NCBI GenBank assembly: GCA_037442105.1
Contig: JBBIQV010000003.1
Coordinates: 63,670 to 127,669, forward strand
Length of the DNA: 64,000 nucleotides
From: Nitrospiraceae bacterium
GTDB lineage: Bacteria > Nitrospirota > Nitrospiria > Nitrospirales > Nitrospiraceae
Direction: 5' to 3'
Shown here: one piece after another, positions 705 through 45,023 of the stretch
Layout of the letters: every line of letters begins with the position of its first letter
Numbering within the stretch: the stretch's first letter is position 1
Notes under the pieces: model-generated
The model's database searches: none
What the model was told of the DNA's origin: nothing
What the model saw: the letters and a program-made list of their open reading frames with translations, nothing else
Translations under genes and position numbers: made by a program

Positions 705-781
705 GCGGCAACTCGGCGAAGAGGAAATAGGAGAATGAATTGCAAGCATCGCTTGGAGAGTCCCTTAAGGAGGAAACTATC

Positions 782-2002: not shown

Positions 2003-2038
2003 TGCGCCTGTGGAAGGAATTGAAGAAGGAGACCAGCA

Positions 2039-9377: not shown

Positions 9378-9389
9378 CAGAAGAGGGTC

Positions 9390-17041: not shown

Positions 17042-17053
17042 CCGAGGGTCGTG

Positions 17054-17530: not shown

Positions 17531-17537
17531 GGGTTTG

Positions 17538-28241: not shown

Positions 28242-29831
28242 TTATGAATTGCCGGACCTCTGTTTTGCGTTCAAGGTTTCTACCCATTGGCGCTGGAACT
28301 GCTCATAGGAGAGGGAAAGCTTGTCCTGCATGGCGGCGTCGAGAGGCTGGCCGGTTGTGAGTAAGTTCATCAGTTGTCGAACCTTGAACATGCTGTACCG
28401 GTCCACCAGGTTTTGAGCCGCTGCGGAGGCTTCCAGATAAGCGGCTAACCGCGTGTCTGCCGCCAGGTTGGTCCATGGGCTTTCTAAGGAGGTGAGAGGG
28501 ATCAAAGCGGGGCCTTTCTCCCTGGCTCCTTCAAGGTCGGGCCATGGATCCTCGGCCAAGAGGATTGCAAGCCCTTCAACCAACCACGTAGGAACTTTAA
28601 CGAGATGAGCGCCCATCTTGTCACGAAGTAAGGCGTGAACAAACTCATGGCGCAGCACCCGGCTCAACCAAGCTAGGTCGTCAAGCGCTCCCCGCACGGG
28701 CAGGTGAATCTCATTTGAAGCTGCGTCGTACAACTTATCCGCCCATTCCGGGCTTCCCGTTCTGTTCGTAAAGGTTTCTGCTGTGTGCAGCACCACCATG
28801 AGGGGAGCCGAGGGGAAATGCCCGAACTTCTGGCAGATGTCCAGGTATGCAAATTCGAGGATGGCACGCACACGGACCCAGGCTTCCTCATCCTTGTCGC
28901 CGGCGAATCTCGCGATGAAGTGCTCCTGTTGTTGGAGATCGGAGTGTTGCTCGGTCTCTTTCGAACGCGTCACCTTGGCGGTTGAAATGATCGGAGCAGG
29001 TCGTGACGCGACGTTCGTTTGGAGTATCTGCGCGGCGCCGTCCTGACTCCGTGCAATCAGCCCTTGCGCGTTGCCTTTTCCCGGCTGATTGGCCAGGAAA
29101 AGCTTGTGTGGGTCGGACTGAGCCGCGAGTCGGATTTTTGCCGTCAGACTGTGGGCATAGGATTGCAGGGTCGGATCGCGCTGGGCTTGTTCAACCACCT
29201 GATTAAGGTGGCGCATGGCCGTCTCCACCTCACCTTTCTCCAGCAGCAGTTCAGCCAAGGCCAGATGCGGAAAAGGTTCGCGCGGAATTAAACGGATAAC
29301 CTTCTGCAAAAACTCGGGTGTGAGCGAAGGGTGACGAAGCCCCCAATACGCATGGGTGAGATTCAGATGGGCGACCGAACTGGCTCGATCGATGGCCACT
29401 GCTTTCTGAAATGCCTTGACTGACACCTCGATGCCGCCCGATTGTTCTTGTTGAACTCCTAGATTATTCCACAACGTGGCTACGTACTTTCGCGCGCGTT
29501 CGTGCGCTAGCACTTCGGTGGGCAACCTATGAAGTCTCGAGGCTGCCTCTCCCAAGTTTCCTTTCTCCAATTCATCGCGGATTGCCTGAAGTTTGGAGTT
29601 AGGAGCTTCGCCGGGATCCCCAAGACGCGCTGACGGAATTTGGGGATCGAGGGGTATCGCTGTTGTGGTTGGCCTGGAATCCATGGTGGTTGGCGGTTCC
29701 TCGCCATTTGTCGTAGACGGAGTGGGACGCGGGGCGTGGTAGGCCGGTTTCAGCCACCCCTGATAGAGGACAAAAATCGCCAACGCTGCGACTATCAGGC
29801 GTAAGAGAGGAGCAAGGCTACGGCGATACAT
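28242..29831 (-). CDS. Membrane-anchored TPR protein with a peptidase MA-like zinc metallopeptidase domain
   Basis: N-terminal TM; TPR (WNNLG, AHLNL, PHLALAELL); HEFVH plus WLVEGLA gluzincin motif. Confidence 0.8.
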   Translation of the reverse strand: MYRRSLAPLLRLIVAALAIFVLYQGWLKPAYHAPRPTPSTTNGEEPPTTMDSRPTTTAIPLDPQIPSARLGDPGEAPNSKLQAIRDELEKGNLGEAASRLHRLPTEVLAHERARKYVATLWNNLGVQQEQSGGIEVSVKAFQKAVAIDRASSVAHLNLTHAYWGLRHPSLTPEFLQKVIRLIPREPFPHLALAELLLEKGEVETAMRHLNQVVEQAQRDPTLQSYAHSLTAKIRLAAQSDPHKLFLANQPGKGNAQGLIARSQDGAAQILQTNVASRPAPIISTAKVTRSKETEQHSDLQQQEHFIARFAGDKDEEAWVRVRAILEFAYLDICQKFGHFPSAPLMVVLHTAETFTNRTGSPEWADKLYDAASNEIHLPVRGALDDLAWLSRVLRHEFVHALLRDKMGAHLVKVPTWLVEGLAILLAEDPWPDLEGAREKGPALIPLTSLESPWTNLAADTRLAAYLEASAAAQNLVDRYSMFKVRQLMNLLTTGQPLDAAMQDKLSLSYEQFQRQWVETLNAKQRSGNS

Positions 29832-29897: not shown

Positions 29898-31697
29898 CTA
29901 GCGGAAACGAAGCGCTCCCGCCCCCGGCTTGATCTTCTTCCAAGACGATGTTTCGTGACAGCGTTCGCATGACGGGCCAAAACTGCCCTCGTGTTTGTCG
30001 TCCTTCTTATGACAACTGACACAAGCGTCGGAGGCTTTCACCTTCTTGCCCATTGGACTTCTATGGCAGGCATAACAGTCCAACTCTTTATGGCCGCCGT
30101 CCAGCTTGAAATGCGTCCGCGTGTCGTGGTCGAAATCCCAAATCTTCCAGTCTCGTGCATTGTGACAATCCTCGCACTGTAGCCCTAACCGGCGTTTGTG
30201 TACGTCTTCTTTCTCATGGCAGGCGACACAATCCGATTTGGCATCCTTGAACGCGGCCGTCAGGTGACATTTCTTGCACTCGACTTTTGCGTGCTTCCCT
30301 AATAATGGGAAGCGTGTAATGTCATGGTCAAACTTGGTTTCCTTCCACGATCGCTCGTTGTGGCACTCTTCACACTTTGTCCCTTCCTGACCTTTGTGTT
30401 TGTCGTCGTTCTCGTGGCAGGCGTAGCAAGTGGTCTTGAGCTTTTCCTTGTAGAGATGCCCCTTATGACAGCTCTCGCACTTGAGGGGTTTATGTTTGCC
30501 CAGCAATGGGTATTTCGTATCCCGATCATGGTCGAAGGGGATGGACTTCCAGTCCTTTTCAATATGGCAATTCTCGCACTTCTCGCCGTAATTCCCTTTG
30601 TGTTTATCATCCTTCTTGTGGCACGCGTAGCAGGTCGTGGGGGTCTTGTCTTTGTATAAGCGTCCTTTGTGGCAGCTTTCGCACTTGGTCGTTTTGTGTT
30701 TCCCCTTGAGCGGGTATTTCGTATCCCGATCATGGTCGAAGGGGATGGACTTCCAGTCCTTTTCAATATGGCAATTCTCGCACTTCTCGCCGTAATTCCC
30801 TTTGTGTTTATCATCCTTCTTGTGGCACGCGTAGCAGGCGGCCGGGGTTTTCTCTTTGCCTACCGGAACCTTGTGGCAGCTCTCACATTTCGTCTTCGTA
30901 TGTTTGCCCTTCAGCGGGTATGTGGTGTCCTTGTCGTGGTTAAACGAGGATGTCTTCCAATCCCTCTCTCCATGACAGGTTTCACACTTGGGACCAAACA
31001 CGCCCTTATGATAGTCGTCTTTCTTGTGACACGCATAGCAATCCATCGGTGTGTTCTTGTACCGTTCATCGGCATGGCAATCCACGCACTTGACGTCGGC
31101 ATGCTTGCCGCGTAGCAAGAAGCGGGTTTTGCTGTGGTCGAAACGAGTCTCCTTCCAGTTGCGCTCGGTGTGACAGTCGGCGCACGCTGGGCCAACGCTT
31201 CCCTTATGCTTGTCATCCTTCTTGTGACAGGCGTAGCAATCTGCCGGGGTGTCACGGTATTTGACCTTCGGCTTGTGGCAGGCTTTACACTCGGCTTTTT
31301 TGGCATCGGCGTGCGCGCCTTTTAGCGGAAAATCTGTCTGTTCGTGGTTGAACGTCTGTCCCGTGATGGGAGCGATGTTCTCCCTCCTGCCTTTGTGCTC
31401 CGTATGGCACTCACGGCATTCGCGTTCTTCCTTGAAACGTCCATGGTATCCCTGCTTTTGTGCAACGTCCTTGGTCACTTCCCTATGGCAATCGAGGCAG
31501 AGCTTGGTCTGGGCTCCCTTGTTGAAGCGCGCGTGACACTTTGCGCAATCTTCTTCCCATTTCGCGTGTCCCTCGATTACCTGTCCCGGCATGAGCGCGG
31601 TCTCGAGGCTGTCCGCCCCGCCCCGTGATGGAAACACAATCCCTGTCGCTGCCAGCACACCGACTACAACGGAAACATAGCGGAGTAAGTCCAGCAC
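29898..31697 (-). CDS. 24-haem periplasmic cytochrome c (PCC3-like)
   Basis: Signal peptide; 24 CxxCH counted by hand, arranged as 3 N-terminal haems plus seven trihaem FxH...PLxGxH units. Confidence 0.92.
   Translation of the reverse strand: MLDLLRYVSVVVGVLAATGIVFPSRGGADSLETALMPGQVIEGHAKWEEDCAKCHARFNKGAQTKLCLDCHREVTKDVAQKQGYHGRFKEERECRECHTEHKGRRENIAPITGQTFNHEQTDFPLKGAHADAKKAECKACHKPKVKYRDTPADCYACHKKDDKHKGSVGPACADCHTERNWKETRFDHSKTRFLLRGKHADVKCVDCHADERYKNTPMDCYACHKKDDYHKGVFGPKCETCHGERDWKTSSFNHDKDTTYPLKGKHTKTKCESCHKVPVGKEKTPAACYACHKKDDKHKGNYGEKCENCHIEKDWKSIPFDHDRDTKYPLKGKHKTTKCESCHKGRLYKDKTPTTCYACHKKDDKHKGNYGEKCENCHIEKDWKSIPFDHDRDTKYPLLGKHKPLKCESCHKGHLYKEKLKTTCYACHENDDKHKGQEGTKCEECHNERSWKETKFDHDITRFPLLGKHAKVECKKCHLTAAFKDAKSDCVACHEKEDVHKRRLGLQCEDCHNARDWKIWDFDHDTRTHFKLDGGHKELDCYACHRSPMGKKVKASDACVSCHKKDDKHEGSFGPSCERCHETSSWKKIKPGAGALRFR
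30508..30838. repeat. Perfect 127-bp direct repeat (30508-30634 and 30712-30838, period 204 nt) inside the 24-haem gene
   Basis: Identical sequence from gggtatttcgtatcc to gcacgcgtagcagg in both copies. Confidence 0.9.
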
Positions 31698-31712
31698 GGT
31701 GCGCCTGATTGC

Positions 31713-32669
31713 TCAGTACATATACACAGCAATCACATGAAAGACCGTACTGGCAGCCAAAATGTAAATCAGCGGAATGTGAAGCACGTGCCAGAGCGAA
31801 AACAGACGCTCGTATGTGCTGAACTGTGCGACACGCTGCACCTCCCTGAGATAAAGAGACGCCAAACCGATCGCTTCCGGCGCCCCCATCCGAAATTCCG
31901 GATGCTTCTCCGCGCGTAAGACGTGCCGCAGTTCTTGCGCACAGCGAAACTCGATTATCCTCCGCCTGAGCTCCAGCGTGAAGAAATGAAGCAAGTTGGC
32001 GGGAAAAGACCTCTCCGTGTGAATGGCCCTTTGCTCGAACGACAGCAGCCATTGCTCCACACGATGAGCGCAATGCAGCCGGGATTTTGCATCGTCCGAC
32101 CGGCCGAGGAGCTCTTTCTGAACTTTTTCCAGCGTCGCCCTGCTGCCGTACAGGCCATAGTGGATCTTCGTGTACACGAACCGGCCGATGATGCCGCTGA
32201 TGACGACGATCAGCATGCTGAAGAGCGCCACGGCCGCGTTAGGAGAACGGACATGAAAAGTGGAATGAAAAAGGACCAAAGTGGGGCCCAGGATTCCCAG
32301 CCACATATGCAAGCGAAACCAATGTTTGAGGGCTCCCCAGCGGTGCGTCCACCGCAGATGCTTTCGGAGCGGATAGGTTAAGAGCGCCAGCATCATCAGA
32401 GTTCCCGCCACTCCGAGATAGAATCCGAATCCCGATCGCGGCGTGTAGTACTTCCCATGGGCGACTTTCCATGCCAGCCATCCAAGCAGGACCGTGACTA
32501 AGAGCAAGTACGCACGTCCCAGCATGGACGGATTCTGCGAAGGTCCCGCCGGTTCAAGCGCCGCAGTCTTCGGTGAGTGGACGACGGAATGGGATGGGTG
32601 CTGCTGGATGGTATCAGCCTGAGCCAAACATGCCTCCTTCCGAGAAAAGCCGATGCCGACCGATGCCAT
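31713..32669 (-). CDS. Inner-membrane His-rich protein, ferric-reductase/cytochrome-b-like (PCC3 inner-membrane component)
   Basis: About 5 TMs; WFRLHMWLG...LFHS, WHVLHIPL and FHVIAV His motifs; directly upstream of the 24-haem gene. Confidence 0.75.
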   Translation of the reverse strand: MASVGIGFSRKEACLAQADTIQQHPSHSVVHSPKTAALEPAGPSQNPSMLGRAYLLLVTVLLGWLAWKVAHGKYYTPRSGFGFYLGVAGTLMMLALLTYPLRKHLRWTHRWGALKHWFRLHMWLGILGPTLVLFHSTFHVRSPNAAVALFSMLIVVISGIIGRFVYTKIHYGLYGSRATLEKVQKELLGRSDDAKSRLHCAHRVEQWLLSFEQRAIHTERSFPANLLHFFTLELRRRIIEFRCAQELRHVLRAEKHPEFRMGAPEAIGLASLYLREVQRVAQFSTYERLFSLWHVLHIPLIYILAASTVFHVIAVYMY

Positions 32670-33015
32670 GACCTGCTATTGATCTACCACGTTACACGCA
32701 ATTCCTGAGCCTAAATCGGAAAATGTGCCCTGATCAGACTGTGTGGTTTTGACCTACCTTTTTGTTCAAAACCGTCTGGGCCTTCTGTGCATGCGCTGAA
32801 AGCCGGAACGTCCAGTCCAGACATTTCAACGACATAAGGAAAGCGTTCCATAGTGGTCCCGGACTTGCTTGCCCTTGATGGGATCAACGGTGGGATTATT
32901 TTCCCAATATTGCTGATTGTCGCTCGTGGGGCGAACACACCAAATTCTAACGATAGGCAGAAGTTGGCTGGCTGCAGGCGTTTGTGAACAGTCTGGCTGG
33001 GTTCTGAACTTGTCG
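32670..33015. promoter_or_regulatory. Divergent promoter region of the porin-cytochrome cluster, with palindromes
   Basis: Non-coding gap between divergent genes; TTGAT-GGG-ATCAA at 32875-32887 and TGGGA-N6-TCCCA at 32891-32906. Confidence 0.4.
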
Positions 33016-34160
33016 ATGAACATGGGCGGGAAATCTCGAATTCCAGGATCGCAAGCGCTCAGCACGTTGCTCATTGCATTGCTGTTCGGCGCAGCTTGTT
33101 TTGTGAGCAGTGACGCAGAAGCGCAAGGTGGGAGAAGTCGTACTGATATCGAGTTCAATCACGGTTCAACCGGGTTTCCGTTGACCGGCGGTCATACGCA
33201 GGTCAGGTGCGAGCGATGTCATATGCAAGGAATATTCAGAGGGACTCCCACCCAGTGTATGCAGTGCCACGCACCCGGCGGGCGAGTGTTTTCGACGTTC
33301 AAACCCAGCAACCACATCCCTACCACGCTGAACTGCAATAGCTGTCACCGAACGACAAATTGGACGCCGGCCTTCTTTGCGCATACGGGCGTTGCGCCAG
33401 GCAGTTGTACTACGTGCCATAACAACAGCATAAGGCGGGGCAAGCCGGCCACGCATGTGCCGACGACGGGGGCCTGCGACACGTGCCATNNNNNNNNNNN
33501 NNNNNNNNNNNNNNNNNNNNNNNNNNNNNNNNNNNNNNNNNNNNNNNNNNNNNNNNNNNNNNNNNNNNNNNNNNNNNNNNNNNNNNNNNGACGCCGGGCA
33601 GTTGCGCGACCTGTCACAACGGCAGCACGGCGCGGGGCAAGCCGGCCACGCATGTGCCGACGACGGGGGCCTGCGACACGTGCCATCGGACGACGGCCTG
33701 GGTCCCGGCGACGTTCAGCCACGCGGGGGTGACGCCGGGCAGTTGCGCGACCTGTCACAACGGCAGCACGGCGCGGGGCAAGCCGACGGGTCACTTCGTG
33801 ACGTCGCAAGCCTGCGATGTTTGCCATCGTACAACCGGCTGGATACCGGTCAATGCCTATGTCCACCGGACGCCGTATTACAAGGCTCACCGATCCGATG
33901 TGACGTGTAACGCCTGCCATACCAATAACAATGAAATGCTGGCCTGGCCGTACGCAGCCTACAAACCTGATTGCGCTGGTTGCCATGCGGGCCGTTTCAA
34001 GCCCGATCCGCATAAGAAATCCGAGTCGCCGAGGATTCTCTACACCGTTATGGAACTGAAAGACTGCTCGGGCAGTTGCCACGTGTACACCAACTCCACG
34101 TTCACCACCATTAGCAAAAGCCGCAGCGGCCAACACCGCCCGACCGGTGGCGGCTTCTAA
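33016..34160 (+). CDS. Secreted repeat multihaem cytochrome c (>=11 CxxCH + 1 CxxxCH), interrupted by a 100-N assembly gap
   Basis: Signal peptide ending AEA; 5 haem motifs before the gap and 7 after; 47-aa dihaem repeat TPGSCATCH...ACDTCH. The two track ORFs are one gene split by the gap. Confidence 0.88.
33396..33840 (+). repeat. 141-bp tandem dihaem-coding repeat array, unresolved at the gap
   Basis: acgccgggcagttgcgcgacctgtcacaac occurs at 33591 and 33732; ggggcaagccggccacgcatgtgccgacgacgggggcctgcgacacgtgccat occurs on both sides of the gap. Confidence 0.85.
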
Positions 34161-34184
34161 CAATCGTTTCAGGGAGATACTCGA

Positions 34185-36530
34185 TTGGATGTGAGTTGTG
34201 CAAGCAGGTTGCGTCTTGTAAAACGCGTCGTCCTGCTTGGCGCCATCCTTGCCTTTGGCTTGCTCAGTGTGCCGGTTCCAGTCTCCGCGCAAGTCCTCGA
34301 TCGTATCGAAATCGTCGAAACTCCGACGGAAGCCGAGATCCACATCGTGTTTAATACGCGCGTGCTCTACCTGCGCCATACTCCTACGGACCAGGGTGAT
34401 CTGGTCCGGATGTTTTTGGACTTTCCGGAACTCGACCGGTCTCGCCGGCTCGGACGAGAACTTGCTGCGTCCCCGCCGAGCGACCTGGTACCGAAGTTTT
34501 CGGTGACGTTTCCTGATCAGGCCACGAACGGACTGTCCGTCAAGTTCAGCCGGCCGGTAAGGTTCAAAGTGAGCCAACGGGATATCAGGCGCAGCAGTCG
34601 AATCGTCATTTCTGTAAAGCTGGAAAAGCCGCAAGCGACGCCGTCTGCCATTGCCGGTTCCACTCCGCCTGTCATTTCGTCTCCGCCGGAGGAGAAAGCT
34701 CAACCGCCTCTGGCCACGCCACCCCCTCAGGTAAGATCGCGCCCATTCGCCATACCGCCTTTCCGTCCCGGAATGGATATCCAACGGTATGCGGAGGATC
34801 TGATGAAGCAGGGCCGTGGGGCGTTAACTGCCGGGGACAACGAGAAAGCGATTCAGATCTTCAATGCGTTGTTGAATCTCCCGCCCCACAAACAGTCGCA
34901 AGACGCTCAAGAACTGGTCGGATTGGCCCGTGAGCGGAACGGCGAGATCGCCAAAGCCAAAGTGGAATATGAGCAGTACCTGAAAGCCTACCCGGAAGGT
35001 GAAGGCGCAACAAGAGTTCGCCAGAGATTGGCGACACTGGCAGAAGCCAAACCGCAAGTCGCTCTACGCAAATTTGGAGAGAGGCAAGCCAGGCAAATTG
35101 ACGAGATGACCGTCTATGGTAGCGTGTACGAATACTATTACGGCGGGTATACTCAGCAAAAAACGAAGGCCAAAGACATCAACACGACGACCACGCTGAA
35201 CACCCACGACCAATCGTTGCTGGTCTCCGCTTTCGACATCACCGGTCGTTACCGCAAGAATGAGTATGACAACAAATTTGTGGTGCGCGGCACGCACTCC
35301 TGGGACTTCCTGGCTGCCGACGACGTAAGAAGGAACATTGCCCGTTTAAGGGCAGCCTATTTTGAGCACTCGAGCCAGGATTCCTATCTCCTTCGGGTGG
35401 GCCGGCAGCCGGGCAATACCGGTGGGATTCTGGACTATCGGTTTGACGGCGCGTGGTTCCGCTACACCGTCGCGCCCCAATTCCTCAACGTGAACTTGGT
35501 GGGAGGGCTGCCCCGGGAATTCAGCTTGGATGCCACGTCTGTCCCCGATGATCCCCGAAACTTCCGAGCCGACTTCAAACGCCATTTTTATGGGGCCAAT
35601 CTGGACATCGGGCCTGTGGCGGGGGCGTGGAGCGGCAACGCCTATGTCATTAATCAAGTGGTAAATGGGGTTGTCGACCGCCGGGCCGTGGGCGGGGAAC
35701 TGCGCTATGCCTCGAACGGCAAGAACGCTTATTCACTGATCGATTACGACATCTCCTACGGGGTGTTGAATGTTGCCATGCTCAACGGCACCTGGGTGAC
35801 CGAAGGCGGCACGACCTATACGGTACTGCTGGACCACCGCAAAACCCCGTACCTGCAGACGACCAACGCGTTGCTCGGGAGCGGGCTGACATCGATCGAC
35901 GGCATCTTCAAGAGCGAGAACGAGAGTGTCTTACGCCAGCAGGCCAAAACCCTCACGGCAACCAGCGACCTGTTCATGGCCGGCATTCTTCATCCTGTCA
36001 CCAAAACCTGGCAATTGGGCGGTGATGTTCGGATGAACCGGATCTCCGGCACCTCCGCGACCAACTGTCTGGTGGTGACTCCTGGGACCAGTGTGGTTTT
36101 TCAGAACCCTAATGCCGTGACCGACGCACCCTGTTCCCTCCAGGCGCTGCCTGGGACCGGCGATATCTGGACCTATACCGTCCAGGCCATCGGGACAGAT
36201 GTGCCGTTTCAGAACAGCACGTTCGTTATGAACGGCAGTTATATCAACAGCCCGACCTACCAAGGCCAGTCGTTGTCTCTGAATTCTCTCGGACGATTCG
36301 GCCAGAAGTGGCAAGTGGACACGTTCGTCACCCTCTATCATCAGAAGGACAGTACCAATATGCGCTTGTATCGCGTGACGCCGTCTTTGCGCATTGATTA
36401 CCGGTGGCTCGACAGTTGGACATTCGAGGCGGCGGGAGGGGTAGAGAAGACGATCACCGACAGCCCAACCCAGCGCGACTCGATTCTCCGGCAATTCTTT
36501 TTCTTTGGTATTCGGTGGGACTTCTCATAA
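34185..36530 (+). CDS. Outer-membrane beta-barrel (porin) with N-terminal AMIN-like and TPR periplasmic domains
   Basis: Signal peptide; TPR segment (AQELVGLARERNG...YLKAYP); alternating beta strands; aromatic C-terminus FFFGIRWDFS; follows the multihaem gene. Confidence 0.8.
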   Translation: MDVSCASRLRLVKRVVLLGAILAFGLLSVPVPVSAQVLDRIEIVETPTEAEIHIVFNTRVLYLRHTPTDQGDLVRMFLDFPELDRSRRLGRELAASPPSDLVPKFSVTFPDQATNGLSVKFSRPVRFKVSQRDIRRSSRIVISVKLEKPQATPSAIAGSTPPVISSPPEEKAQPPLATPPPQVRSRPFAIPPFRPGMDIQRYAEDLMKQGRGALTAGDNEKAIQIFNALLNLPPHKQSQDAQELVGLARERNGEIAKAKVEYEQYLKAYPEGEGATRVRQRLATLAEAKPQVALRKFGERQARQIDEMTVYGSVYEYYYGGYTQQKTKAKDINTTTTLNTHDQSLLVSAFDITGRYRKNEYDNKFVVRGTHSWDFLAADDVRRNIARLRAAYFEHSSQDSYLLRVGRQPGNTGGILDYRFDGAWFRYTVAPQFLNVNLVGGLPREFSLDATSVPDDPRNFRADFKRHFYGANLDIGPVAGAWSGNAYVINQVVNGVVDRRAVGGELRYASNGKNAYSLIDYDISYGVLNVAMLNGTWVTEGGTTYTVLLDHRKTPYLQTTNALLGSGLTSIDGIFKSENESVLRQQAKTLTATSDLFMAGILHPVTKTWQLGGDVRMNRISGTSATNCLVVTPGTSVVFQNPNAVTDAPCSLQALPGTGDIWTYTVQAIGTDVPFQNSTFVMNGSYINSPTYQGQSLSLNSLGRFGQKWQVDTFVTLYHQKDSTNMRLYRVTPSLRIDYRWLDSWTFEAAGGVEKTITDSPTQRDSILRQFFFFGIRWDFS

Positions 36531-36555: not shown

Positions 36556-37176
36556 ATGCTTGAAGTAGCCAACCTGAGTTGCAGTCGCGGAGACCGCCGG
36601 CTCTTTTCGGGAGTGACGTTTACGGTTCAGCCTGGCGGCGTGTTGTGTGTCCAAGGAGACAACGGAATCGGTAAGACCAGTCTGTTGCGTTTGGTCTGCG
36701 GATTGATGTCGCCGGAGGAGGGATCGATCAGGTGGCAAGGGACGGATATTCGCCAGTGGCACGAACGCTATGTCGCCCAGTTGATCTATGTTGGACATCT
36801 CAACGGGCTCAAGGATGACCTCACACCATTAGAGAATCTGCGGGTCTCGTCCCTTCTGGCGGGCGAGAGGCTCCCGCTCGAATCAGTTGGGGCGGCATTG
36901 ACCGCTATGGGTCTAGACCGGTCCGCTCATCTGCTGCCCACGAGCGTGTTATCTCAGGGACAGAAGCGGCGAGTGGCGTTGGCCCGCTTGTGGAGTCTCA
37001 CGCGCCCCTTGTGGGTTCTCGACGAACCTTTCGCCGCGCTTGATGCCGCTGCTGTAGATCTCTTGACTCGGCGTTTGCAGGCACATGTGAGTGCCGGCGG
37101 CATGGTTGTGCTGGCTACCCACCAGGAGGTTGACGTTGCTGCCGATTGCGTTCGCCATTTGAGGCTGACCGGATGA
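36556..37176 (+). CDS. ccmA: Haem export ABC ATPase
   Basis: GDNGIGKT, YVGHLNGLK, LSQGQKRRVALARL, LWVLDEP. Confidence 0.95.
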   Translation: MLEVANLSCSRGDRRLFSGVTFTVQPGGVLCVQGDNGIGKTSLLRLVCGLMSPEEGSIRWQGTDIRQWHERYVAQLIYVGHLNGLKDDLTPLENLRVSSLLAGERLPLESVGAALTAMGLDRSAHLLPTSVLSQGQKRRVALARLWSLTRPLWVLDEPFAALDAAAVDLLTRRLQAHVSAGGMVVLATHQEVDVAADCVRHLRLTG

Positions 37177-37856
37177 GCCGATCCGGAATGTTCTTGGCCG
37201 TTCGAGGGATCATTTGGCGAGATCTTCTGCTGGCCTTGCGACGACGCTCGGATCTGATGACGACCGTCTTGTTCTTCGTCATTGCCACCAGCCTGTTCCC
37301 GCTGGGGGTCGGACCAGATCAAGCGGTGTTACGGATAACCGCCCCAGGGGTATTATGGGTTGCCGCTCTGTTGTCCTGCATGTTGTCGTTGAGCCGGCTT
37401 TTTGCAGGGGATTATCAAGATGGCACACTGGAACAAATGCTGGTGACTCCTCAGTTGCTCGCGGCGCTCGTGACCGGCAAGGTGTGTGTGCACTGGCTTG
37501 TGTCCGGATTGCCCATCGTCCTGCTCGCGCCTCTGCTTGGATTACAGTTCGGCTTAGGAGGTGAATCGTTATGGGTGTTGACTCTGTCATTGCTGCTGGG
37601 CACCCCGGTGCTGAGTTTGATTGGATCGATCGGCGCAGCCCTCACGCTTGGCATCCGAGGGAGCGGCCTACTGATGGCTCTCTTGGTATTACCGCTGTTC
37701 GTACCCGTTTTGATTTTCGGGGCCGGCGCGGTGTCGAGCAGCATGGCCGGGATGGGGGTGGAAGCCAATTTCTCGCTGTTGGGCGCGTGTCTGGTGCTGG
37801 CGCTTGGTCTGGCGCCATGGGCCACCGCTGCGGCGTTGCGCATTGCCATGGAGTAG
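37173..37856 (+). CDS. ccmB: Haem exporter permease
   Basis: LFPLGVGP, DYQDGTLEQ, LLGTP, LVLPLFVPVLIFG. Confidence 0.95.
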   Translation: MSRSGMFLAVRGIIWRDLLLALRRRSDLMTTVLFFVIATSLFPLGVGPDQAVLRITAPGVLWVAALLSCMLSLSRLFAGDYQDGTLEQMLVTPQLLAALVTGKVCVHWLVSGLPIVLLAPLLGLQFGLGGESLWVLTLSLLLGTPVLSLIGSIGAALTLGIRGSGLLMALLVLPLFVPVLIFGAGAVSSSMAGMGVEANFSLLGACLVLALGLAPWATAAALRIAME

Positions 37857-38036
37857 CCCGCATTATTCATGAAGCTTCTGCTGCAAGCGCGGATATGCGG
37901 CTGCAACGGGCAGTCTCGGCGCTCAGCCCTTCAACATACTGCGCGAGTATGCTTCAGGGCTTCGCACCTCCGAGTGCCCGTTTCGCTTCGCATCTGCGCG
38001 CTTTCGCGACGAACCGTCATGAATAATGCGGGCTAG
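37854..38036. mobile_element. ~180-bp MITE-like element with 19-bp perfect terminal inverted repeats
   Basis: tagcccgcattattcatga (37854-37872) and tcatgaataatgcgggcta (38017-38035); TAG at both ends; nested internal inverted repeats. Confidence 0.8.
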
Positions 38037-38046
38037 GAGCTTTCCG

Positions 38047-38790
38047 ATGAAGTTGCCGGGCATCAATTGGTTCAGATTTTCGTCGCCCCAAGCGTTGTAT
38101 CCGCTTGCGGGATCACTCATCCCGTGGTTCGCCTTCGCTGCGGTGCTGTTCATCGTCATCGGCCTCTACATCGGCTTCTTCGTGGCCCCCACCGATTTTC
38201 AGCAGGGCGACGCGTACCGAATCATCTTCGTCCATGTGCCGGCAGCTTGGATGTCGATGTTCCTGTACGTGGTGATGGCGGGCTGGGCGGCCTTAGGACT
38301 GGGGTTGAAGGTGCGACCTTCTTTCATGATGGCGCAAGCGGTCGCGCCTACTGGTGCGATGTTCACGTTTCTTGCGCTGCTGACCGGTTCTCTGTGGGGC
38401 AAGCCTACCTGGGGAACTTGGTGGGTGTGGGATGCGCGGCTGACCTCGGAGCTGATTCTGTTGTTCCTGTATTTGGGTACGATATTGTTGCATGCGGCGA
38501 TTGACGATCCACGGCGTGCCGATCGTGCCAGCGCCGTCTTCGCGGTCGTCGGCGTCGTGAACGTGCCGATCATCTATTTCTCCGTTCAGTGGTGGAACAC
38601 ACTGCATCAAGGAGCGTCCATCAGCGCGACGGTGGCGCCGAAGATGGCTGCGATCATGGTCGCAGGAATGTTGCTGGTGGCGGTCGGGTTCTGGATGTAT
38701 AGCATTGCCGTGGCGCTCACGCGTCTGCGCTGTGTGGTCCTCGAGCGCGAACGTCATGCCTCCTGGGTCCAGGAACTGAAGGTGGGCTGA
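38047..38790 (+). CDS. ccmC: Haem exporter / haem delivery protein
   Basis: HVPAAW, WGKPTWGTWWVWDARLT (WWD domain), WWNTLHQ. Confidence 0.96.
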   Translation: MKLPGINWFRFSSPQALYPLAGSLIPWFAFAAVLFIVIGLYIGFFVAPTDFQQGDAYRIIFVHVPAAWMSMFLYVVMAGWAALGLGLKVRPSFMMAQAVAPTGAMFTFLALLTGSLWGKPTWGTWWVWDARLTSELILLFLYLGTILLHAAIDDPRRADRASAVFAVVGVVNVPIIYFSVQWWNTLHQGASISATVAPKMAAIMVAGMLLVAVGFWMYSIAVALTRLRCVVLERERHASWVQELKVG

Positions 38791-38969
38791 TGGCGTGGGG
38801 AAGTCTCTCGGAGTTTCTCATGATGGGTGGATATGGACTCTACGTGTGGCCCTCGATCGGAGCCACTGCCCTGAGCATGGGGTGGGAAGTGCTGGCTTTG
38901 CGCCGACGGCGCGCTACGGCGGTTCGTTCAGTTCCTCAGCAGCGAACGGTTGAAGGTAAACAACGATGA
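38790..38969 (+). CDS. ccmD: Haem exporter protein D (59 aa, absent from the ORF track)
   Basis: Hand translation [24 protein letters not shown]...RRRR; overlaps the ccmC stop and the ccmE start. Confidence 0.88.
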
Positions 38970-39442
38970 GCCCACGCCGGAAACGGTTTGCGATGATCGG
39001 GATCGGCTTGGTCGCGCTCGCGCTCGCTGCGGCATTGGTGCTGAATGCGTTCCGCAACAATCTGGTCTTCTTCTTCACCCCCACCCAGGTGGCGAACGGC
39101 GAAGTGCCGCAGGGACGAAGTTTCCGCATCGGCGGATTGGTGGAGGCGGGCAGCCTTTTGCGGGAGAGTGACGGGCTGACCGTTCATTTCGCCGTGACGG
39201 ATATGGCGAAACGTGTTCCGGTGACGTACAAAGGAATTCTTCCTGATTTGTTCAAGGAGGGGAAAGGCGCTGTTGCTCAAGGACGACTAGGCCCAGATGG
39301 CGTCTTTCTGGCGAGCGAGGTGCTCGCCAAACACGACGAGAACTATATGCCGCCTGAAGCGGCGGAGGCCTTGGCGAAAGCGAAGGCTTCCGGCGCGCAG
39401 AGCGCCCGACCACCAAGCGGTCGTGCCGCGCTAGCAAACTAA
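38966..39442 (+). CDS. ccmE: Haem chaperone
   Basis: [27 protein letters not shown]. Confidence 0.96.
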
Positions 39443-39443
39443 C

Positions 39444-41432
39444 ATGGTCCCAGAAATCGGTCACTTCGCTCTGATTCTCTCCCTGTGTATCGCGGTGGTG
39501 CAGGGAACTGTGCCGATCGCCGGAGCGGCGATCGGCAACGCTATGTGGATGGCAGTGGCCAAGCCCGCAGCCCGCGGCCAGTTTCTGTTTGTGATGATCG
39601 CTTTCGGCTGTCTGGCCTATGCCTTTGCAAGCAACGACTTCTCCGTGCTTTATGTCGCGGCCAACTCGAACTCGCAACTCCCGTTGTCTTATCGCCTGGC
39701 CGCCGTATGGGGGGCTCATGAGGGCTCGCTGCTTCTGTGGACGCTCATCCTGACCCTTTGGATGGTGGCCGTGACTCTGTTCTCCGAGCACTTGCCGCAG
39801 GCGATGCAGGCCCGCATTTTGGGTGTGATGGGGCTGGTGAGCTTCGGATTTCTCCTGTTCGTATTGACGGTGTCCAATCCATTCGAACGTCTAATCCCGG
39901 CTGCGGCGGACGGACGCGATCTGAACCCGTTACTACAGGACCCCGGTATGGTGCTCCACCCTCCGATGCTCTACATGGGCTATGTGGGTTTCTCTGTCGC
40001 CTTCTCCTTCGCCATTGCGGCTCTGCTGGGTGGCAACCTCGATGCAGCCTGGGCACGCTGGTCTCGCCCTTGGACGACCGTGGCCTGGAGTTTCTTGACC
40101 CTCGGGATTGCCCTGGGGAGCGGGTGGGCCTATTACGAGCTGGGTTGGGGTGGCTGGTGGTTTTGGGACCCGGTTGAAAATGCCTCCTTCATGCCCTGGT
40201 TGGCAGGAACTGCCTTGATTCACTCGCTGGCCGTTACCGATAAACGCGGCGGTTTCAAAGTCTGGACCGTCCTCCTGGCTATTCTCGCCTTCTCGTTGAG
40301 CCTTCTCGGAACTTTTCTCGTCCGGTCCGGAGTCTTGACCTCGGTCCACGCGTTTGCAACTGATCCGAAGCGCGGCCTCTTTATCCTCACTTTCCTGGCC
40401 GTGGTGGTCGGCGGGTCGCTGGTCCTCTACGCCTGGCGAGCCCCTCGTGTGGGCTTGGGGGGTGGGTTTACCCTTGTCTCGCGCGAGTCCGTGTTGCTTG
40501 CGAATAATGTCTTGTTGGTTGTGGCAACCGGTTCGGTGATGCTCGGCACACTCTACCCGTTATTTCTCGACGCGCTGGGTCTTGGGAAAATCTCCGTCGG
40601 CCCTCCGTACTTCGATACGGTCTTCGTTCCGCTCGTGACGCCCGCTCTTTTTCTGATGGGGATTGGGCCGATCGCGCAGTGGAAGAACGCTGAGCTGCCC
40701 GCCCTCGCAACGCGGTTCCGCTGGGCGTTCGGAGTCAGCCTCGCAACCGCTGTTCTCCTGCCGTTTGTGCTGGGAAAATGGACGCCGCTCATCAGCCTTG
40801 GTCTGTTGCTGGCAGGCTGGATTCTGGCAACCACTGTGGTCAACGTCCGCGAACGACTCGCCCATGCAGTGGGTAATCACATGCTCAGCCGGCTGATTTG
40901 TCTCCCACGGGCATACTGGGGAATGCTGCTCGCCCATTGCGGGATTGCGGTGTTCATCGTCGGCGTGACCCTGGTGAAGGGATATGAAATCGAGAAAGAC
41001 CTGCGCATGAGCGTCGGAGAGACGGCGTCGATCGGCGGGTACACGTTCCGGTTTGAAGGGGTAGAGGAACTGAAGGGGCCCAACTATGTTGCCGCTCGCG
41101 GCACGTTTCGCGTGACCAAGGATGGTCGCGACATCACCGAGATGCGTCCGGAGAAGCGAATCTATACCATCCAGAATCAACCGATGACGGAAGCCGCCAT
41201 TGATTCCGGACTGTTGCGCGACCTGTATGTATCGTTGGGCGAGCCGCTCGACGGTGATGCGTGGAGTGTACGGCTCTATTACAAGCCGTTTGTGAATTGG
41301 ATTTGGGGCGGATGTTTAATCATGGCGCTGGGCGGAGCCTGGGCGGTCAGTGATCGCCGGTACCGTTTGACGATGCGGCGCGAGCAGACAACCGTACCGG
41401 CGACGGTCCAGCCGGTGGCCCAAGAAGTCTGA
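39444..41432 (+). CDS. ccmF: Cytochrome c haem lyase subunit
   Basis: WGAHEGS, HPPMLY, WGGWWFWDPVEN, SVHAF. Confidence 0.96.
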   Translation: MVPEIGHFALILSLCIAVVQGTVPIAGAAIGNAMWMAVAKPAARGQFLFVMIAFGCLAYAFASNDFSVLYVAANSNSQLPLSYRLAAVWGAHEGSLLLWTLILTLWMVAVTLFSEHLPQAMQARILGVMGLVSFGFLLFVLTVSNPFERLIPAAADGRDLNPLLQDPGMVLHPPMLYMGYVGFSVAFSFAIAALLGGNLDAAWARWSRPWTTVAWSFLTLGIALGSGWAYYELGWGGWWFWDPVENASFMPWLAGTALIHSLAVTDKRGGFKVWTVLLAILAFSLSLLGTFLVRSGVLTSVHAFATDPKRGLFILTFLAVVVGGSLVLYAWRAPRVGLGGGFTLVSRESVLLANNVLLVVATGSVMLGTLYPLFLDALGLGKISVGPPYFDTVFVPLVTPALFLMGIGPIAQWKNAELPALATRFRWAFGVSLATAVLLPFVLGKWTPLISLGLLLAGWILATTVVNVRERLAHAVGNHMLSRLICLPRAYWGMLLAHCGIAVFIVGVTLVKGYEIEKDLRMSVGETASIGGYTFRFEGVEELKGPNYVAARGTFRVTKDGRDITEMRPEKRIYTIQNQPMTEAAIDSGLLRDLYVSLGEPLDGDAWSVRLYYKPFVNWIWGGCLIMALGGAWAVSDRRYRLTMRREQTTVPATVQPVAQEV

Positions 41433-41959
41433 TGAAACGATTTCTCCTGCCGCTTGCGGTCTTTGTGGTACTGGTGGGATTTCTCGGCGTCGGGTTGAAG
41501 CTCGACCCGCGCGAGGTACCGTCGCCTCTCATCGGTAAGCCGGCGCCGGATTTTTCGCTTCCCCAGTTGCACAATCCGGAGAAGGTCTTTTCGCCAAAAG
41601 ACGCTGTCGGAAAAGTCTGGTTGCTGAATGTATGGGCCTCCTGGTGCGGCGGTTGCCGCGATGAACATCCTGTGCTCATGCGGTTGGCGCAAAGCAGTCA
41701 GGTGCCCCTCTACGGCATGGATTACAAAGATCGTCGGGACGAGGCGTTGACGTGGCTGAGGCAGTGGGGCAACCCGTACCCCGTGACGGTAATGGATGAG
41801 ACCGGTCGTGCCGGAATCGATTACGGCGTGTATGGCGTGCCGGAGACCTATGTGATCGATAAGACCGGGGTCATCCGCTATAAACAGATCGGTCCCCTCG
41901 ATGAGGAAACGGTGCAGGGGAAGATTCTGCCTCTCGTTCAGGAGTTACAGCAGAAATGA
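41432..41959 (+). CDS. ccmG: Thiol:disulfide oxidoreductase DsbE/CcmG
   Basis: WASWCGGC, GVYGVPET. Confidence 0.93.
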   Translation: MKRFLLPLAVFVVLVGFLGVGLKLDPREVPSPLIGKPAPDFSLPQLHNPEKVFSPKDAVGKVWLLNVWASWCGGCRDEHPVLMRLAQSSQVPLYGMDYKDRRDEALTWLRQWGNPYPVTVMDETGRAGIDYGVYGVPETYVIDKTGVIRYKQIGPLDEETVQGKILPLVQELQQK

Positions 41960-42417
41960 AACGGCTGTTGTTGGTCCTCCTGCTCGTTCCATGGATTGCG
42001 GCCGCGGAAGAAACCTGGCCGTCGGCTGATAATGCGCGCGTTGAAGCTCGTCTGAAAGCATTAGCCATCGAATTGCGCTGCCTCGTCTGTCAGAACCAAA
42101 CACTGGCTGATTCCAACGCCCCGCTGGCCGAAGATTTGCGCCGAGAGATTCGCGCAATGATCGCCAGGAACATGAGCGACAAGGATATTATCGAATTCCT
42201 GGTGGCACGCTACGGTGATTTTGTGCTCTACCGGCCGCCATTGAAGGCCACCACGATCCTACTCTGGCTTGGACCTTTTGTCTTGCTTGCGATCGGCGGC
42301 ATGACGTTCGTGCTGGCGTTGAAGCGAAGACAGAGGAAATTAGCCGCTGTGGTCCTCTCGGAGGAAGAGCACGACCGAGCGGCGCAGTTGCTTTCAGAAG
42401 GAACTCGTCGGTCATGA
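41956..42417 (+). CDS. ccmH: Cytochrome c biogenesis protein CcmH (CycL)
   Basis: LRCLVCQNQ, RYGDFVLYRP. Confidence 0.94.
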   Translation: MKRLLLVLLLVPWIAAAEETWPSADNARVEARLKALAIELRCLVCQNQTLADSNAPLAEDLRREIRAMIARNMSDKDIIEFLVARYGDFVLYRPPLKATTILLWLGPFVLLAIGGMTFVLALKRRQRKLAAVVLSEEEHDRAAQLLSEGTRRS

Positions 42418-43694
42418 CCTGGCTTTTTTGGATCATTGCCGCGGCGATGGCTCTCATTGCCCTTGCGATCCTGGTATGGCCTCTGTTGAAACGTACTCCG
42501 CCGGTCTCAAACGCGGACCGTGACAAGACGCTGGTGGTCTACCGGCAGCACGTCGTCGAGTTGGAGCAAGACCTGAAGAACGGTGTTGTGACCGACACGC
42601 AGTACCAGCAAGCACGCCGAGAGTTGGAGCATCGCCTTCTGCAAGAAATAAACGAGTCGGAGGCAGTGCAGCCTCCACCAAGCTTCCAATTCAATAGCCG
42701 TGCGATGGCGTTGGCGCTTGCCGGGCTGGTTCCTTTGGTGAGCGTGCTGCTGTATCTGAAGTTTGGGAATTTGCCGGCGTTCACACATCCGACCGTCTCG
42801 ACGACCCAAGTGCGCGCGGGGACAGAGTATGACCATCGGTCGGGGGGAGGACTCGACACGTTGGCCGAGCGACTCAAACAGCGGCTACAGGAAAACCCGA
42901 GCGACGGAGCAGGCTGGGCCCTCCTGGCCCGTTCCTATGTGGAATTGGAACGCCATGCGGAAGGAGTCATAGCATTTGAAAAAGCTGCGACCATAATCCC
43001 CGATGATGCCCAGTTGCTGGCTGATTACGCCGACGCATTAGGTGTCATTCACGGTCGTAAGCTCGATGGGAAACCCGAACGATTGGTCGCGCAGGCGTTG
43101 GATCTCGATCCGCACAACCTGAAGGCTTTGATGCTGGCAGGGACCATCGCCTACGACCACAAGGACTATTCTCGTGCCCTCAAATATTGGGAGCAGGCGC
43201 GCACGGAGTTGCCTCCTGATGTCGAGCCGGAGATCAAGCAGGAGCTGACCGCGAACGTGAATGAAGTGAGGAATCTCATCGGAGGGTCCCGGAAGGTGGT
43301 GGTGAGTTATGAAGAAACCTCTCCTACCCGGGCCGCTTCAGCCAAACAAAATGCAGCGATTACAGGAAAGGTAAGTGTGGCCCCCGGTTTGGCAAGCAAA
43401 GGCTCGTTCACAGACACCTTGTTCGTGTTTGCACGGGCGGTCGAGGGACCACCCATGCCGGTCGCGATCGTTCGCGCCACCAAAAAGGATCTGCCGTTCA
43501 CGTTTCGTCTCGATGACTCGAATAGCCCTATGTCTTCGCGAAAACTCTCGGAAGCGGGAGCTGTGGAGATCGTCGCTCGTTTGTCGAAATCCGGCGACGC
43601 CGTGCCGAAAAGTGGAGATCTGCAAGGAACGAGCAAGCCGGTAAAGCCGGGCGCAGATGGGATTCAGGTCGTGATCGATACGGAGTTGCCGTAA
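42414..43694 (+). CDS. ccmI: Cytochrome c biogenesis TPR protein CcmI (CycH)
   Basis: Two TMs, TPRs (GWALLARSY), C-terminal Ig-like domain (LPFTFRLDD, ARLSKSG). Confidence 0.9.
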   Translation: MTWLFWIIAAAMALIALAILVWPLLKRTPPVSNADRDKTLVVYRQHVVELEQDLKNGVVTDTQYQQARRELEHRLLQEINESEAVQPPPSFQFNSRAMALALAGLVPLVSVLLYLKFGNLPAFTHPTVSTTQVRAGTEYDHRSGGGLDTLAERLKQRLQENPSDGAGWALLARSYVELERHAEGVIAFEKAATIIPDDAQLLADYADALGVIHGRKLDGKPERLVAQALDLDPHNLKALMLAGTIAYDHKDYSRALKYWEQARTELPPDVEPEIKQELTANVNEVRNLIGGSRKVVVSYEETSPTRAASAKQNAAITGKVSVAPGLASKGSFTDTLFVFARAVEGPPMPVAIVRATKKDLPFTFRLDDSNSPMSSRKLSEAGAVEIVARLSKSGDAVPKSGDLQGTSKPVKPGADGIQVVIDTELP

Positions 43695-43709: not shown

Positions 43710-45023
43710 ATGTCTCTCTCCCTCGTCACCACGTTGCTGTATCTGCTCCCGATCGTCCTTGCCTTGGCGCTCTACCACCGCCGCCATCGGAAAAAAGAAA
43801 GTCGCGATCGGGCCCGCTTGGAAGAAACGAAGACGGCCGGAATCACCGAGCCGTTGACACTGCATCCCGTCATCAACCCGAACCGCTGCATCGGCTCCGG
43901 CGCATGCGTGAAAGTTTGCCCCGAAAGGGCTCTCGGGATTGTGAAAGGCAAAGCGGTGCTGGTTCAGCCGGACCATTGTATCGGCCATGGCGCCTGCGAA
44001 GCGGCCTGTCCTGTTGAAGGGATTCAGCTCGTCTTCGGCACGGAAAAACGCGGCATTGATATCCCGCATGTGAAGCCGACATTCGAAACCAATGTTCCCG
44101 GTATCTTCATCGCCGGCGAGCTGGGCGGGATGGGACTCATTCGCAAAGGGATCGAGCAGGGGAAGCGGGCGATGGACTCTGTTCGCAAGAACAAGGGTGG
44201 CGGGAGCGAGTTGGACGTTGTGATCGTCGGCGCGGGGCCGGCCGGTCTCTCCGCCTCGCTGGCCGCCAAAGAATATGGACTCCGCTTTGTGACGATTGAG
44301 CAAGAAGACTCCCTGGGCGGGTCCGTGTATCACTATCCGCGCCGGAAACTCGCGATGACGGCGCCCATGAAACTCCCGATCGTGGGCAAGTTCAACCGAT
44401 ACGAAATCAGCAAGGAGGAACTCCTTGCATTCTGGAACAAGGTCGTTTGCGACACCGGCCTCAAGATCAATTTCAACGAACGGATGGAGGCTATCAGCAA
44501 TACGGGAAGCGGGTTCATCGTCAAAACTTCCAAGTCCAGCTACAAGGCCAAGAACGTTCTGCTTGCCATCGGTCGGCGGGGCACGCCGCGCAAGCTGGAA
44601 GTGCCCGGTGAGGAGCAGCCCAAGGTCGTCTATCGCTTGATTGACGCAGAACAGTATCGAGGGCGGCATGTGTTAGTGGTGGGCGGCGGTGATAGCGCCG
44701 CCGAGGCCGCCTTGGCCGTGGCGGATGAACCGGGAACTACGGTCACCTTATCCTGCCGGGGAGACGAAATTTTCACGCGACCAAAAGAAAAGAACCGCCA
44801 GAGACTAAAACAGGCTGACTCTCAGGGCAAAATCAAAGTGTATCTGAAATGCCATGTGAAAGAGATCGGTCCCGACTGGATCATTCTCGCTCAAGAGGGG
44901 AAGACGATCAAACTGAAGAACGATGCCGCCATCATTTGTGCCGGCGGGACCCTTCCCACGCCCATGCTCAAAGAGATGGGTGTGATGGTCGACACCTACT
45001 ACGGCACGCCTGTTCCGAAATAA
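43710..45023 (+). CDS. Membrane-anchored ferredoxin-domain FAD/NAD(P)H oxidoreductase (TrxB/FNR-like)
   Basis: N-terminal TM; CIGSGACVKVCP and CIGHGACEAACP; VGAGPAG and VGGGDSA. Confidence 0.85.
   Translation: MSLSLVTTLLYLLPIVLALALYHRRHRKKESRDRARLEETKTAGITEPLTLHPVINPNRCIGSGACVKVCPERALGIVKGKAVLVQPDHCIGHGACEAACPVEGIQLVFGTEKRGIDIPHVKPTFETNVPGIFIAGELGGMGLIRKGIEQGKRAMDSVRKNKGGGSELDVVIVGAGPAGLSASLAAKEYGLRFVTIEQEDSLGGSVYHYPRRKLAMTAPMKLPIVGKFNRYEISKEELLAFWNKVVCDTGLKINFNERMEAISNTGSGFIVKTSKSSYKAKNVLLAIGRRGTPRKLEVPGEEQPKVVYRLIDAEQYRGRHVLVVGGGDSAAEAALAVADEPGTTVTLSCRGDEIFTRPKEKNRQRLKQADSQGKIKVYLKCHVKEIGPDWIILAQEGKTIKLKNDAAIICAGGTLPTPMLKEMGVMVDTYYGTPVPK

Follow-up and report, generated by a model that had tools for sequence, protein, structure and literature searches.

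The PCC3 family of porin-cytochrome clusters is described, in the available text of He et al. 2017 (PMC5566968) and of a survey of Gallionellaceae (PMC9900912), as a set of four components, exemplified by Slit_1446-1449 of Sideroxydans ES-1: an inner-membrane protein (IMP), a periplasmic multihaem cytochrome, a repeat multihaem cytochrome and a porin. Here we describe a locus with the same four components in 64,000 nucleotides of DNA from a Nitrospiraceae bacterium (GenBank assembly GCA_037442105.1, contig JBBIQV010000003.1, positions 63,670 to 127,669; this whole stretch is called the window below). The four genes are followed by an operon for cytochrome c maturation (ccm, system I) and by a gene for an iron-sulfur flavoprotein. 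We put at roughly 0.5 the probability that this PCC3, with its own ccm operon and flavoprotein, works as a wire that carries electrons from NAD(P)H in the cytoplasm to extracellular acceptors. What is new here is that dead scraps of the porin gene, and sometimes of the flavoprotein gene, flank the hao-linked ccm operon in part of the comammox Nitrospira. The features of the locus, in window coordinates, are the following.

29898..31697, minus strand: 24-haem periplasmic cytochrome c (PCC3 periplasmic multihaem cytochrome), 599 aa, 24 CXXCH motifs, 25 residues per haem, lysine-rich
31713..32627, minus strand: IMP, from its likely start at 32627 within an open reading frame (ORF) of 31713-32669; five helices, two WX3HX13H motifs, SGXXG
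32628..33015, no strand: divergent intergenic region; opposite-strand layout in 20/20 Nitrospiraceae loci
~33016..34160, plus strand: repeat multihaem cytochrome (the PCC3 'extracellular' cytochrome), 47-residue two-haem repeats, 100-N assembly gap at 33490-33589
34185..36530, plus strand: PCC3 porin, 781 aa; beta-sandwich, proline linker, TPR and 22-strand beta-barrel
36380..36530, plus strand: 3' end of the porin gene; corresponds to the dead remnant found upstream of ccmA in hao regions of comammox genomes
36556..43694, plus strand: ccmA, B, C, E, F, G, H, I operon (cytochrome c maturation system I), by Pfam domains
43713..45023, plus strand: membrane-anchored iron-sulfur flavoprotein; N-terminal helix, ferredoxin motifs, FAD and NAD(P)H domains

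A PCC3 with an inverted half

The likeness to published PCC3 extends to the individual parts, as far as the cited texts are available. The periplasmic cytochrome has 24 haems in ES-1 (Slit_1447) and 21-27 in the survey, and 24 here; the repeat cytochrome is rich in small residues (Thr/Ser/Ala/Gly) there and here; the IMP has ~300 residues with two WX3HX13H motifs and SGXXG in both; and the Leptothrix cholodnii porin is reported as a 22-strand barrel, the strand number modelled here. Unlike published PCC3, the locus belongs to a Nitrospiraceae host, its IMP and periplasmic cytochrome genes are inverted relative to the other two, and ccmA-I and the flavoprotein gene follow the porin, whereas the published model, in the text at hand, has no cytoplasmic partner.

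The locus is very likely a PCC3 member. The name fits because the barrel, both His motifs of the IMP and the homology of all four proteins to clusters with Gallionella-type porins are present. The porin shares 37% identity with a Gallionella sp. protein (E 2e-150), its other named homologues being from Methylotenera, Sulfuricella and Sulfurimicrobium, and the 24-haem cytochrome is 45-61% identical to homologues in metagenome loci with Gallionella-type and more distant porins. Two cluster look-ups gave no named Sideroxydans protein among 20 proteins, and homology to the ES-1 proteins (Slit_0867-0870, Slit_1446-1449) is indirect, by way of the clusters with Gallionella-type porins. The original prediction, made from the DNA letters, had matched the locus to a four-component cluster of neutrophilic Fe oxidisers. 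The match to four components withstands comparison with Gallionella, but the unit is larger by the ccm operon and the flavoprotein, and the host is not of that kind.

An alignment of Gallionella-type porins yielded 80 metagenome loci, 21 of them long enough to show both IMP and porin. In all 21, the genes for the IMP, the periplasmic cytochrome, the repeat cytochrome and the porin share a strand and follow the order of Slit_1446-1449. The IMP gene lies opposite in strand to the porin gene in 20/20 Nitrospiraceae loci (counted after removal of five duplicates) versus 0/30 elsewhere. Since the one-strand order prevails in the metagenome clusters and the IMP strand is flipped in Nitrospiraceae, the gene orders identify the locus as a PCC3 with an apparently lineage-specific inversion. 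The predicted split over a divergent promoter is right as to layout (~390 bp separate the likely starts of the IMP and repeat cytochrome genes), but a promoter scan of the intergenic region found one sigma-70-like site against 0.4 +/- 0.6 in shuffles, which is not above chance.

Structure of the conduit components

The 24-haem cytochrome and a His-rich inner-membrane protein were correctly foreseen on the minus strand: all 24 CXXCH motifs and both His motifs are there. The cytochrome consists of eight three-haem repeats and has one N-terminal hydrophobic segment. Its 26 non-motif histidines would be enough for bis-His ligation of all haems, which is the ligation its sequence predicts for each of them. 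Read from position 32627, the IMP has 304 residues, the length of most of its close homologues, and its structure model contains five long hydrophobic helices and a helical insertion. Its motifs are W103-H107-H121 and W279-H283-H297 (both WX3HX13H) and SGIIG (an SGXXG motif); both WX3HX13H motifs recur in 44/45 aligned homologues and SGXXG in 45/45, and the protein is predicted to hold two b haems. It has no Pfam (the ferric-reductase family PF01794 included), NCBIfam or PDB sequence match; fold searches returned generic helical bundles only (best Z 9.8), and a plasmid search gave eight matches, all partial and distant. In another Nitrospirota family (f12), where the porin is present in 7/7 genomes, the IMP ORFs of loci L247, L249 and L250 are 545-769 residues long, compared to the usual 300, have no Pfam match and may be fusions or upstream extensions.

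The repeat cytochrome is one gene on the plus strand, as predicted, but the prediction does not mention the 100-N gap that splits it. Two genes or a frameshift are ruled out as readings of the two plus-strand frames: the break between them is the gap, and relatives have a single frame. The visible part holds 11 CXXCH motifs and one CX3CH, the gap hiding the full haem count, and is composed of 13% Thr, 10% Gly, 9% Ala and 8% Ser. The protein begins with a signal-peptide-like segment. A lipoprotein start is ruled out, as there is no proper lipobox and the cysteine concerned is missing in relatives. Its extracellular site is a prediction here, as it is in the PCC3 source paper. Contigs from three sequencing runs fail to span the gap; the depth of repeat contigs relative to the flanks (~8-9 times in X1, 5 times in X2 and X3) gives a rough hint of 17-25 haems and no copy number. 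Gap-free relatives in Nitrospiraceae loci have 9 to 30 haem motifs. Repeat cytochromes with 84, 62 and 62 haem motifs occur in metagenome PCC3 loci (L093:3105-9959, L087:4784-9859 and L091:4618-9657).

The AlphaFold2 model of the porin (mean pLDDT 86.6) shows an N-terminal beta-sandwich, a proline linker, TPR helices and a 22-strand barrel, so that the predicted TPR/beta-barrel architecture is borne out by the model. The Foldseek matches listed are outer-membrane barrels, none of them close (TM-score at most 0.30 by query length). They include cellulose synthase subunit C and ushers, with low TM-scores, and the combination of TPR and barrel recalls polymer-export proteins. The barrel might then be an export channel rather than an insulating sleeve, and the cytochromes an electron store or a secreted surface polymer with no continuous wire. 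The span of haem numbers in the repeat cytochrome, 9 to 84 among loci, would suit such a role, as would the proteomics of ES-1, in which, in the part of the source available, the porin was detected and the extracellular cytochrome was not. However, the four genes are kept together across phyla, and export through the barrel can coexist with conduction. We regard a conduit without a wire as very doubtful.

The flavoprotein as a proposed fifth component

The flavoprotein combines FAD and NAD(P)H domains of the thioredoxin-reductase/ferredoxin-NADP-reductase (FNR) type with an N-terminal membrane anchor helix and two ferredoxin motifs, in which the second Cys is replaced by Ser and His, respectively; these replacements are found in 31/31 aligned homologues. 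It is present in 46 of 301 genomes of the family, namely in 41/41 porin carriers and 5/260 others; as related genomes are not independent, these counts are no statistical test. Its gene follows ccmI in Nitrospiraceae and is divergent from the IMP gene in 17 of the 18 metagenome loci with room for it (in the 18th, a piece of the gene is cut by the locus edge). Because the flavoprotein is linked to the conduit at different positions in the two groups, the linkage has survived rearrangement. Co-folding of the IMP with the flavoprotein scored 0.45 (best control 0.00), with at least 88% of contacts the same between runs and a partner pLDDT of at least 73. The mark used was reached by 116/157 solved and 2/215 mismatched pairs; scores of 0.60 or under hold 18 of the solved pairs and both mismatches. 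This model lends weak support to a contact between the two proteins.

Taken together, the parts suggest a chain in which electrons would pass from NAD(P)H to FAD and on to the two Fe-S centres of the membrane-anchored flavoprotein, from these to the two putative b haems of the IMP, then to the 24-haem cytochrome, which would span the periplasm, and finally to extracellular acceptors by way of the repeat cytochrome, which the 22-strand barrel would hold. In ferric reductases and NADPH oxidases, electrons travel outward from NADPH. The pair of HX13H motifs is the pattern of these enzymes (PMC5566968, in the text available), and outward flow is likely by analogy with them. Redox balancing under anoxia or the reduction of iron minerals would be possible uses.

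Several points weigh against this assignment. The outward direction is argued by analogy, and the IMP lacks a ferric-reductase Pfam match. A nitrite oxidiser makes NAD(P)H at high cost, so that exporting it would pay only under special conditions. Nitrite oxidation by the host is itself deduced from a same-genus sister genome, NxrA not having been found in the host assembly. No flavoprotein was found in three of the seven loci with room for it from other Nitrospirota, so that the IMP may be able to function on its own. The open literature available to us yielded no experiment on any PCC3. Published expression data, as far as accessible, do not settle the direction: Sideroxydans ES-1 lowers its PCC3 expression on Fe(II) (PMC8788666), and iron-oxidising cells of Sideroxydans CL21 show raised expression of the IMP from one PCC3 copy.

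Those loci in which the flavoprotein was not found and the CL21 response agree with the published model (He et al. 2017, PMC5566968, as far as available). There electrons flow inward from Fe(II), Mn(II) or reduced humics to the IMP, which reduces quinone, and the flavoprotein would be an accessory. A single-haem porin-like gene and a dihaem cytochrome gene 4 kb from the conduit point the same way. Both the ES-1 response and the tight linkage of the flavoprotein, kept through rearrangement, speak against it, and we consider it unlikely for this locus. The same five parts could also run inward as far as the cytoplasm, with low-potential outside donors or partner cells reducing NAD(P)+ or ferredoxin and sparing reverse electron transport, which nitrite oxidisers need for carbon fixation. 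The thioredoxin-reductase/FNR class to which the flavoprotein belongs can run either way, and its presence in all porin carriers and few other genomes would agree with such a role. This direction, however, requires the haems of the chain to have potentials below about -0.3 V, and the ferric-reductase pattern is known from exporters. It appears quite improbable. An NAD(P)H-driven outward wire is the reading we adopt.

Host and distribution

The host assembly is 86.7% complete, and NxrA, NxrB, AmoB and true Hao were not found in it; its same-genus sister genome, G002, has NxrA-type genes. A gene of system II cytochrome maturation (ResB) lies elsewhere in the host genome, and because of it the system I operon is an extra one, likely dedicated to the conduit. 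The sequencing runs that hold this DNA are subsurface and hot-spring metagenomes, two of which look like one data set and one of which may be the source; there is no RNA run among those listed.

In the family, 42 of 301 genomes match the porin, and 41 are counted as carriers since G189 has a dead 3' end only. True Hao is found in 10 of the 41 carriers and in 88 genomes of the family set, a count that leaves out a weaker octahaem paralogue near E 1e-31. One such octahaem cytochrome (G000:C43:3183-4607), weak against the Hao profile (E 3e-31) and common in the family, is not a true Hao. In a phylum-wide sample the porin occurs in 21/301 genomes; outside the family, full-length matches come from 10 genomes in three other families, and in the non-family Nitrospirota loci the four genes share a strand and the sequences are distant. 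The hao-bearing genome G279 has two full conduit copies (L025 and L026), with repeat cytochromes of 28 and 30 haems; its contamination is 7%, and one copy may be foreign.

The ccm operon and the origin of the comammox copy

Canonical Nitrospira use system II and comammox Nitrospira system I (Palomo et al., bioRxiv 10.1101/138586), and system I also occurs in a few strict nitrite oxidisers, for which the available text of Poghosyan et al. 2019 (PMC6852473) leaves open a loss of ammonia oxidation or some other use. The gene order of the ccm operon in the amo/hao region of comammox genomes, according to the accessible parts of both papers, is the same as here. The operon in the window begins 25 bp past the porin stop codon and matches Pfam domains CcmB, CcmE, CcmF_C, CcmH and CycH, besides ABC and thioredoxin domains. 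Full-length hao-linked CcmF is ~77-82% identical to CcmF of the conduit locus, and the two belong to one Nitrospiraceae clade. Unlike the comammox copy, the ccm operon here lies inside a conduit locus, in a genome in which neither hao nor amoB was found. The comammox operon carries dead scraps of conduit genes, on which the text available from both papers is silent.

CcmF matches 130/301 family genomes, mostly with one copy each; loci were taken from 127 of these (three fragments were skipped) and from G010. A DNA profile built from the final 300 bases of 19 intact porin genes was compared with the 500 bases before ccmA in the 89 other loci that had enough DNA. The best of 1,952 controls reached 8.0 bits; 35/89 loci exceeded it, two with full-length porin genes, which leaves 33 remnants in 87 loci, scoring 22-109 bits. 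They occur in 27/73 hao genomes (25/26 in genus g18, 2/47 in g9) and in 6/14 genomes with no hao found. Genus g18 has a duplication of ccmI, a trait given for clade B comammox in the accessible text of Palomo et al. (bioRxiv 138586), and would thus correspond to clade B. When translated, the remnants show recognisable but broken last barrel strands. Their starts fall at profile positions 145-152 in 24 of the 33, although a common breakpoint is only suggestive, because protein-level similarity reaches further back in G173 and G189. The remnants can be assigned to the porin because clusters without ccm genes behind the porin conserve its C-terminus too.

On the other side of the operon, a profile of the flavoprotein 5' end found matches after ccmI in 7/82 loci, all with hao (7/71 hao loci), the top of 902 controls being 3.5 bits. 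In G010 and G173 a truncated flavoprotein gene stands directly before hao. Conversely, in 9/9 genomes with both hao and porin and with visible downstream DNA, ccmA-H are missing after the porin, where ccmI or the flavoprotein gene is found instead. Of 15 conduit loci without ccmA-H, searched for ccm scraps in the gap from porin to ccmI, one has such a scrap (G082, a ccmC fragment); most of these gaps are under 90 bp. Eight loci (L123-L126, L128-L131) are system I operons with neither hao nor an intact porin found; of these ccm-only genomes, G194 and G269 keep porin scraps. This suggests repeated loss of the conduit with retention of ccm.

By its flanking remnants and its sequence, the comammox ccm operon derives, very probably, from a PCC3 conduit locus. 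In an ancestor of comammox Nitrospira, the ccm block of the conduit locus would have been taken over for the hao cassette, carrying along scraps of its old neighbours, the porin 3' end in front and the 5' half of the flavoprotein gene behind, and comammox genomes that retained the conduit would have lost ccmA-H from it. Such a derivation would supply a concrete answer to the question, printed in 2019, of why ccm system I is present in some strict nitrite oxidisers.

The trees are less decisive. CcmF of comammox genomes falls into a single clade (SH-aLRT 99), which lies within that of the Nitrospiraceae, the relatives from Betaproteobacteria standing apart, and with concatenated CcmCEFGHI from 32 genomes a separate non-comammox clade is rejected (p-AU 0.0005, by the approximately unbiased test, AU). 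Against a conduit origin, that test was rooted on a conduit-linked Nitrospiraceae genome (G035), with no outside group; when CcmF alone was used, with 40 rows and an outgroup from Betaproteobacteria, the test did not reject a separate non-comammox clade (p-AU 0.23); the trees hold no CcmF of ammonia-oxidising Betaproteobacteria; and only two of the 47 hao genomes of g9 have a porin remnant. The direction of the history rests more on the remnants than on the trees.

The unrejected CcmF topology leaves some room for the opposite history, one of the two readings in the available text of Poghosyan et al. 2019 (PMC6852473), in which ccm arrived with hao from ammonia-oxidising Betaproteobacteria, the nitrite oxidisers that have it are former comammox, and the operon later moved beside the conduit. 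The nearest named outside relatives are indeed betaproteobacterial. Yet such an arrival leaves the porin and flavoprotein scraps that flank the hao-linked operon unexplained, and agrees poorly with the conserved porin end in clusters without ccm. The order porin-then-ccm also exists outside Nitrospira (L077, L083, L097, L104, L105, L113), and conduit-linked ccm occurs in genera g1, g2, g11, g29 and g35, in whose searched genomes no true hao was found. The betaproteobacterial arrival is therefore already disfavoured, and we think it distinctly improbable.

Significance

Nitrospira are the commonest nitrite oxidisers and, to our knowledge, the only complete ammonia oxidisers. The chances are somewhat better than even that early Nitrospiraceae had an NAD(P)H-linked envelope-spanning conduit, which still works in ~1 in 7 species, some comammox included; that its own, pre-existing ccm operon let a transferred hao cassette function; and that comammox was thus built on the remains of an extracellular electron-transfer island. 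If so, the conduit in 41/301 genomes would mean overlooked electron exchange with minerals, humics, electrodes or partners. The ccm link would also be one step in how comammox arose, with hao and the machinery for maturation likely coming from different sources. The flavoprotein would be a partner on the cytoplasmic side and so open the PCC3 family to tests in vitro.

Neighbouring genes

One further gene adjoins the conduit:

28242..29831, minus strand: TPR / peptidase-MA-like protein, 3' of the 24-haem gene in Nitrospiraceae loci, with a paralogue elsewhere in the genome

A DUF6502 gene (45097-45933, minus strand) and a DUF5666 gene (18591-19559, plus strand) lie in the window; a DUF6502-DUF5666 pair borders the conduit in many Nitrospiraceae loci and is a candidate regulator module. 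The single-haem porin-like protein mentioned above (24673-26043, minus strand) has 456 residues, one N-terminal CXXCH and no Pfam, NCBIfam or PDB match, and presumably resembles the Cyc2-type fused cytochrome-porins. Its gene is followed by the dihaem cytochrome c gene (23896-24669, minus strand); the pair is also found near the conduit in locus L028, and the dihaem gene in L259. A type II secretion cluster (8937-18594, plus strand; GspG, F, E, secretin and pseudopilins) could be an export route for a surface cytochrome. Tandem multicopper-oxidase genes, followed by genes for an Ig-repeat/laminin-G protein and a subtilase, occupy 740-3325 (plus strand).

Comparison with known systems

No paper naming PCC3 in Nitrospira or deriving comammox ccm from PCC3 was found in the parts of the open literature at hand, subscription papers being outside this scope; besides the works cited above, it comprised PMC9040806, PMC11429942, bioRxiv 2025.02.27.639646, PMC12903955, PMC11995701, PMC7005843 and PMC13741234. 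A word search of the PMC5566968 supplements did not find 'Nitrospira', tables held there as pictures being outside the search. A conduit is not wholly unseen before in Nitrospira: the available text of Fortney et al. 2018 (PMC6137239) mentions in passing a 'pcc-like' system of porin and multihaem cytochromes in a Nitrospira hot-spring genome bin, and gives there no family assignment, distribution or ccm link. FNR genes adjoining porin-cytochrome clusters are also on record (PMC13264449, 2026, in the part available).

Like MtrCAB and MtoAB, the conduit combines a barrel with multihaem cytochromes across the outer membrane, which is a likeness in presumed working. Unlike them, it has no decahaem MtrA/MtoA (TIGR03508 gives 14-27 bits, 26.5 at most, against a cut-off of 192), its barrel is different and carries TPR, and it has an inner-membrane part of its own. 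With the superfamily of ferric reductases and NADPH oxidases it shares two HX13H motifs in a membrane protein and a flavin NAD(P)H module, although the module here is a separate protein of the thioredoxin-reductase type with ferredoxin motifs. Taken by itself, then, the conduit is a PCC3 of a known kind, whose function is predicted only. What makes it interesting is how widely it occurs in nitrifiers, together with the sequence scars linking it to the way comammox arose; compared to the PCC3 clusters described so far, the host, the layout and the attached modules are new.

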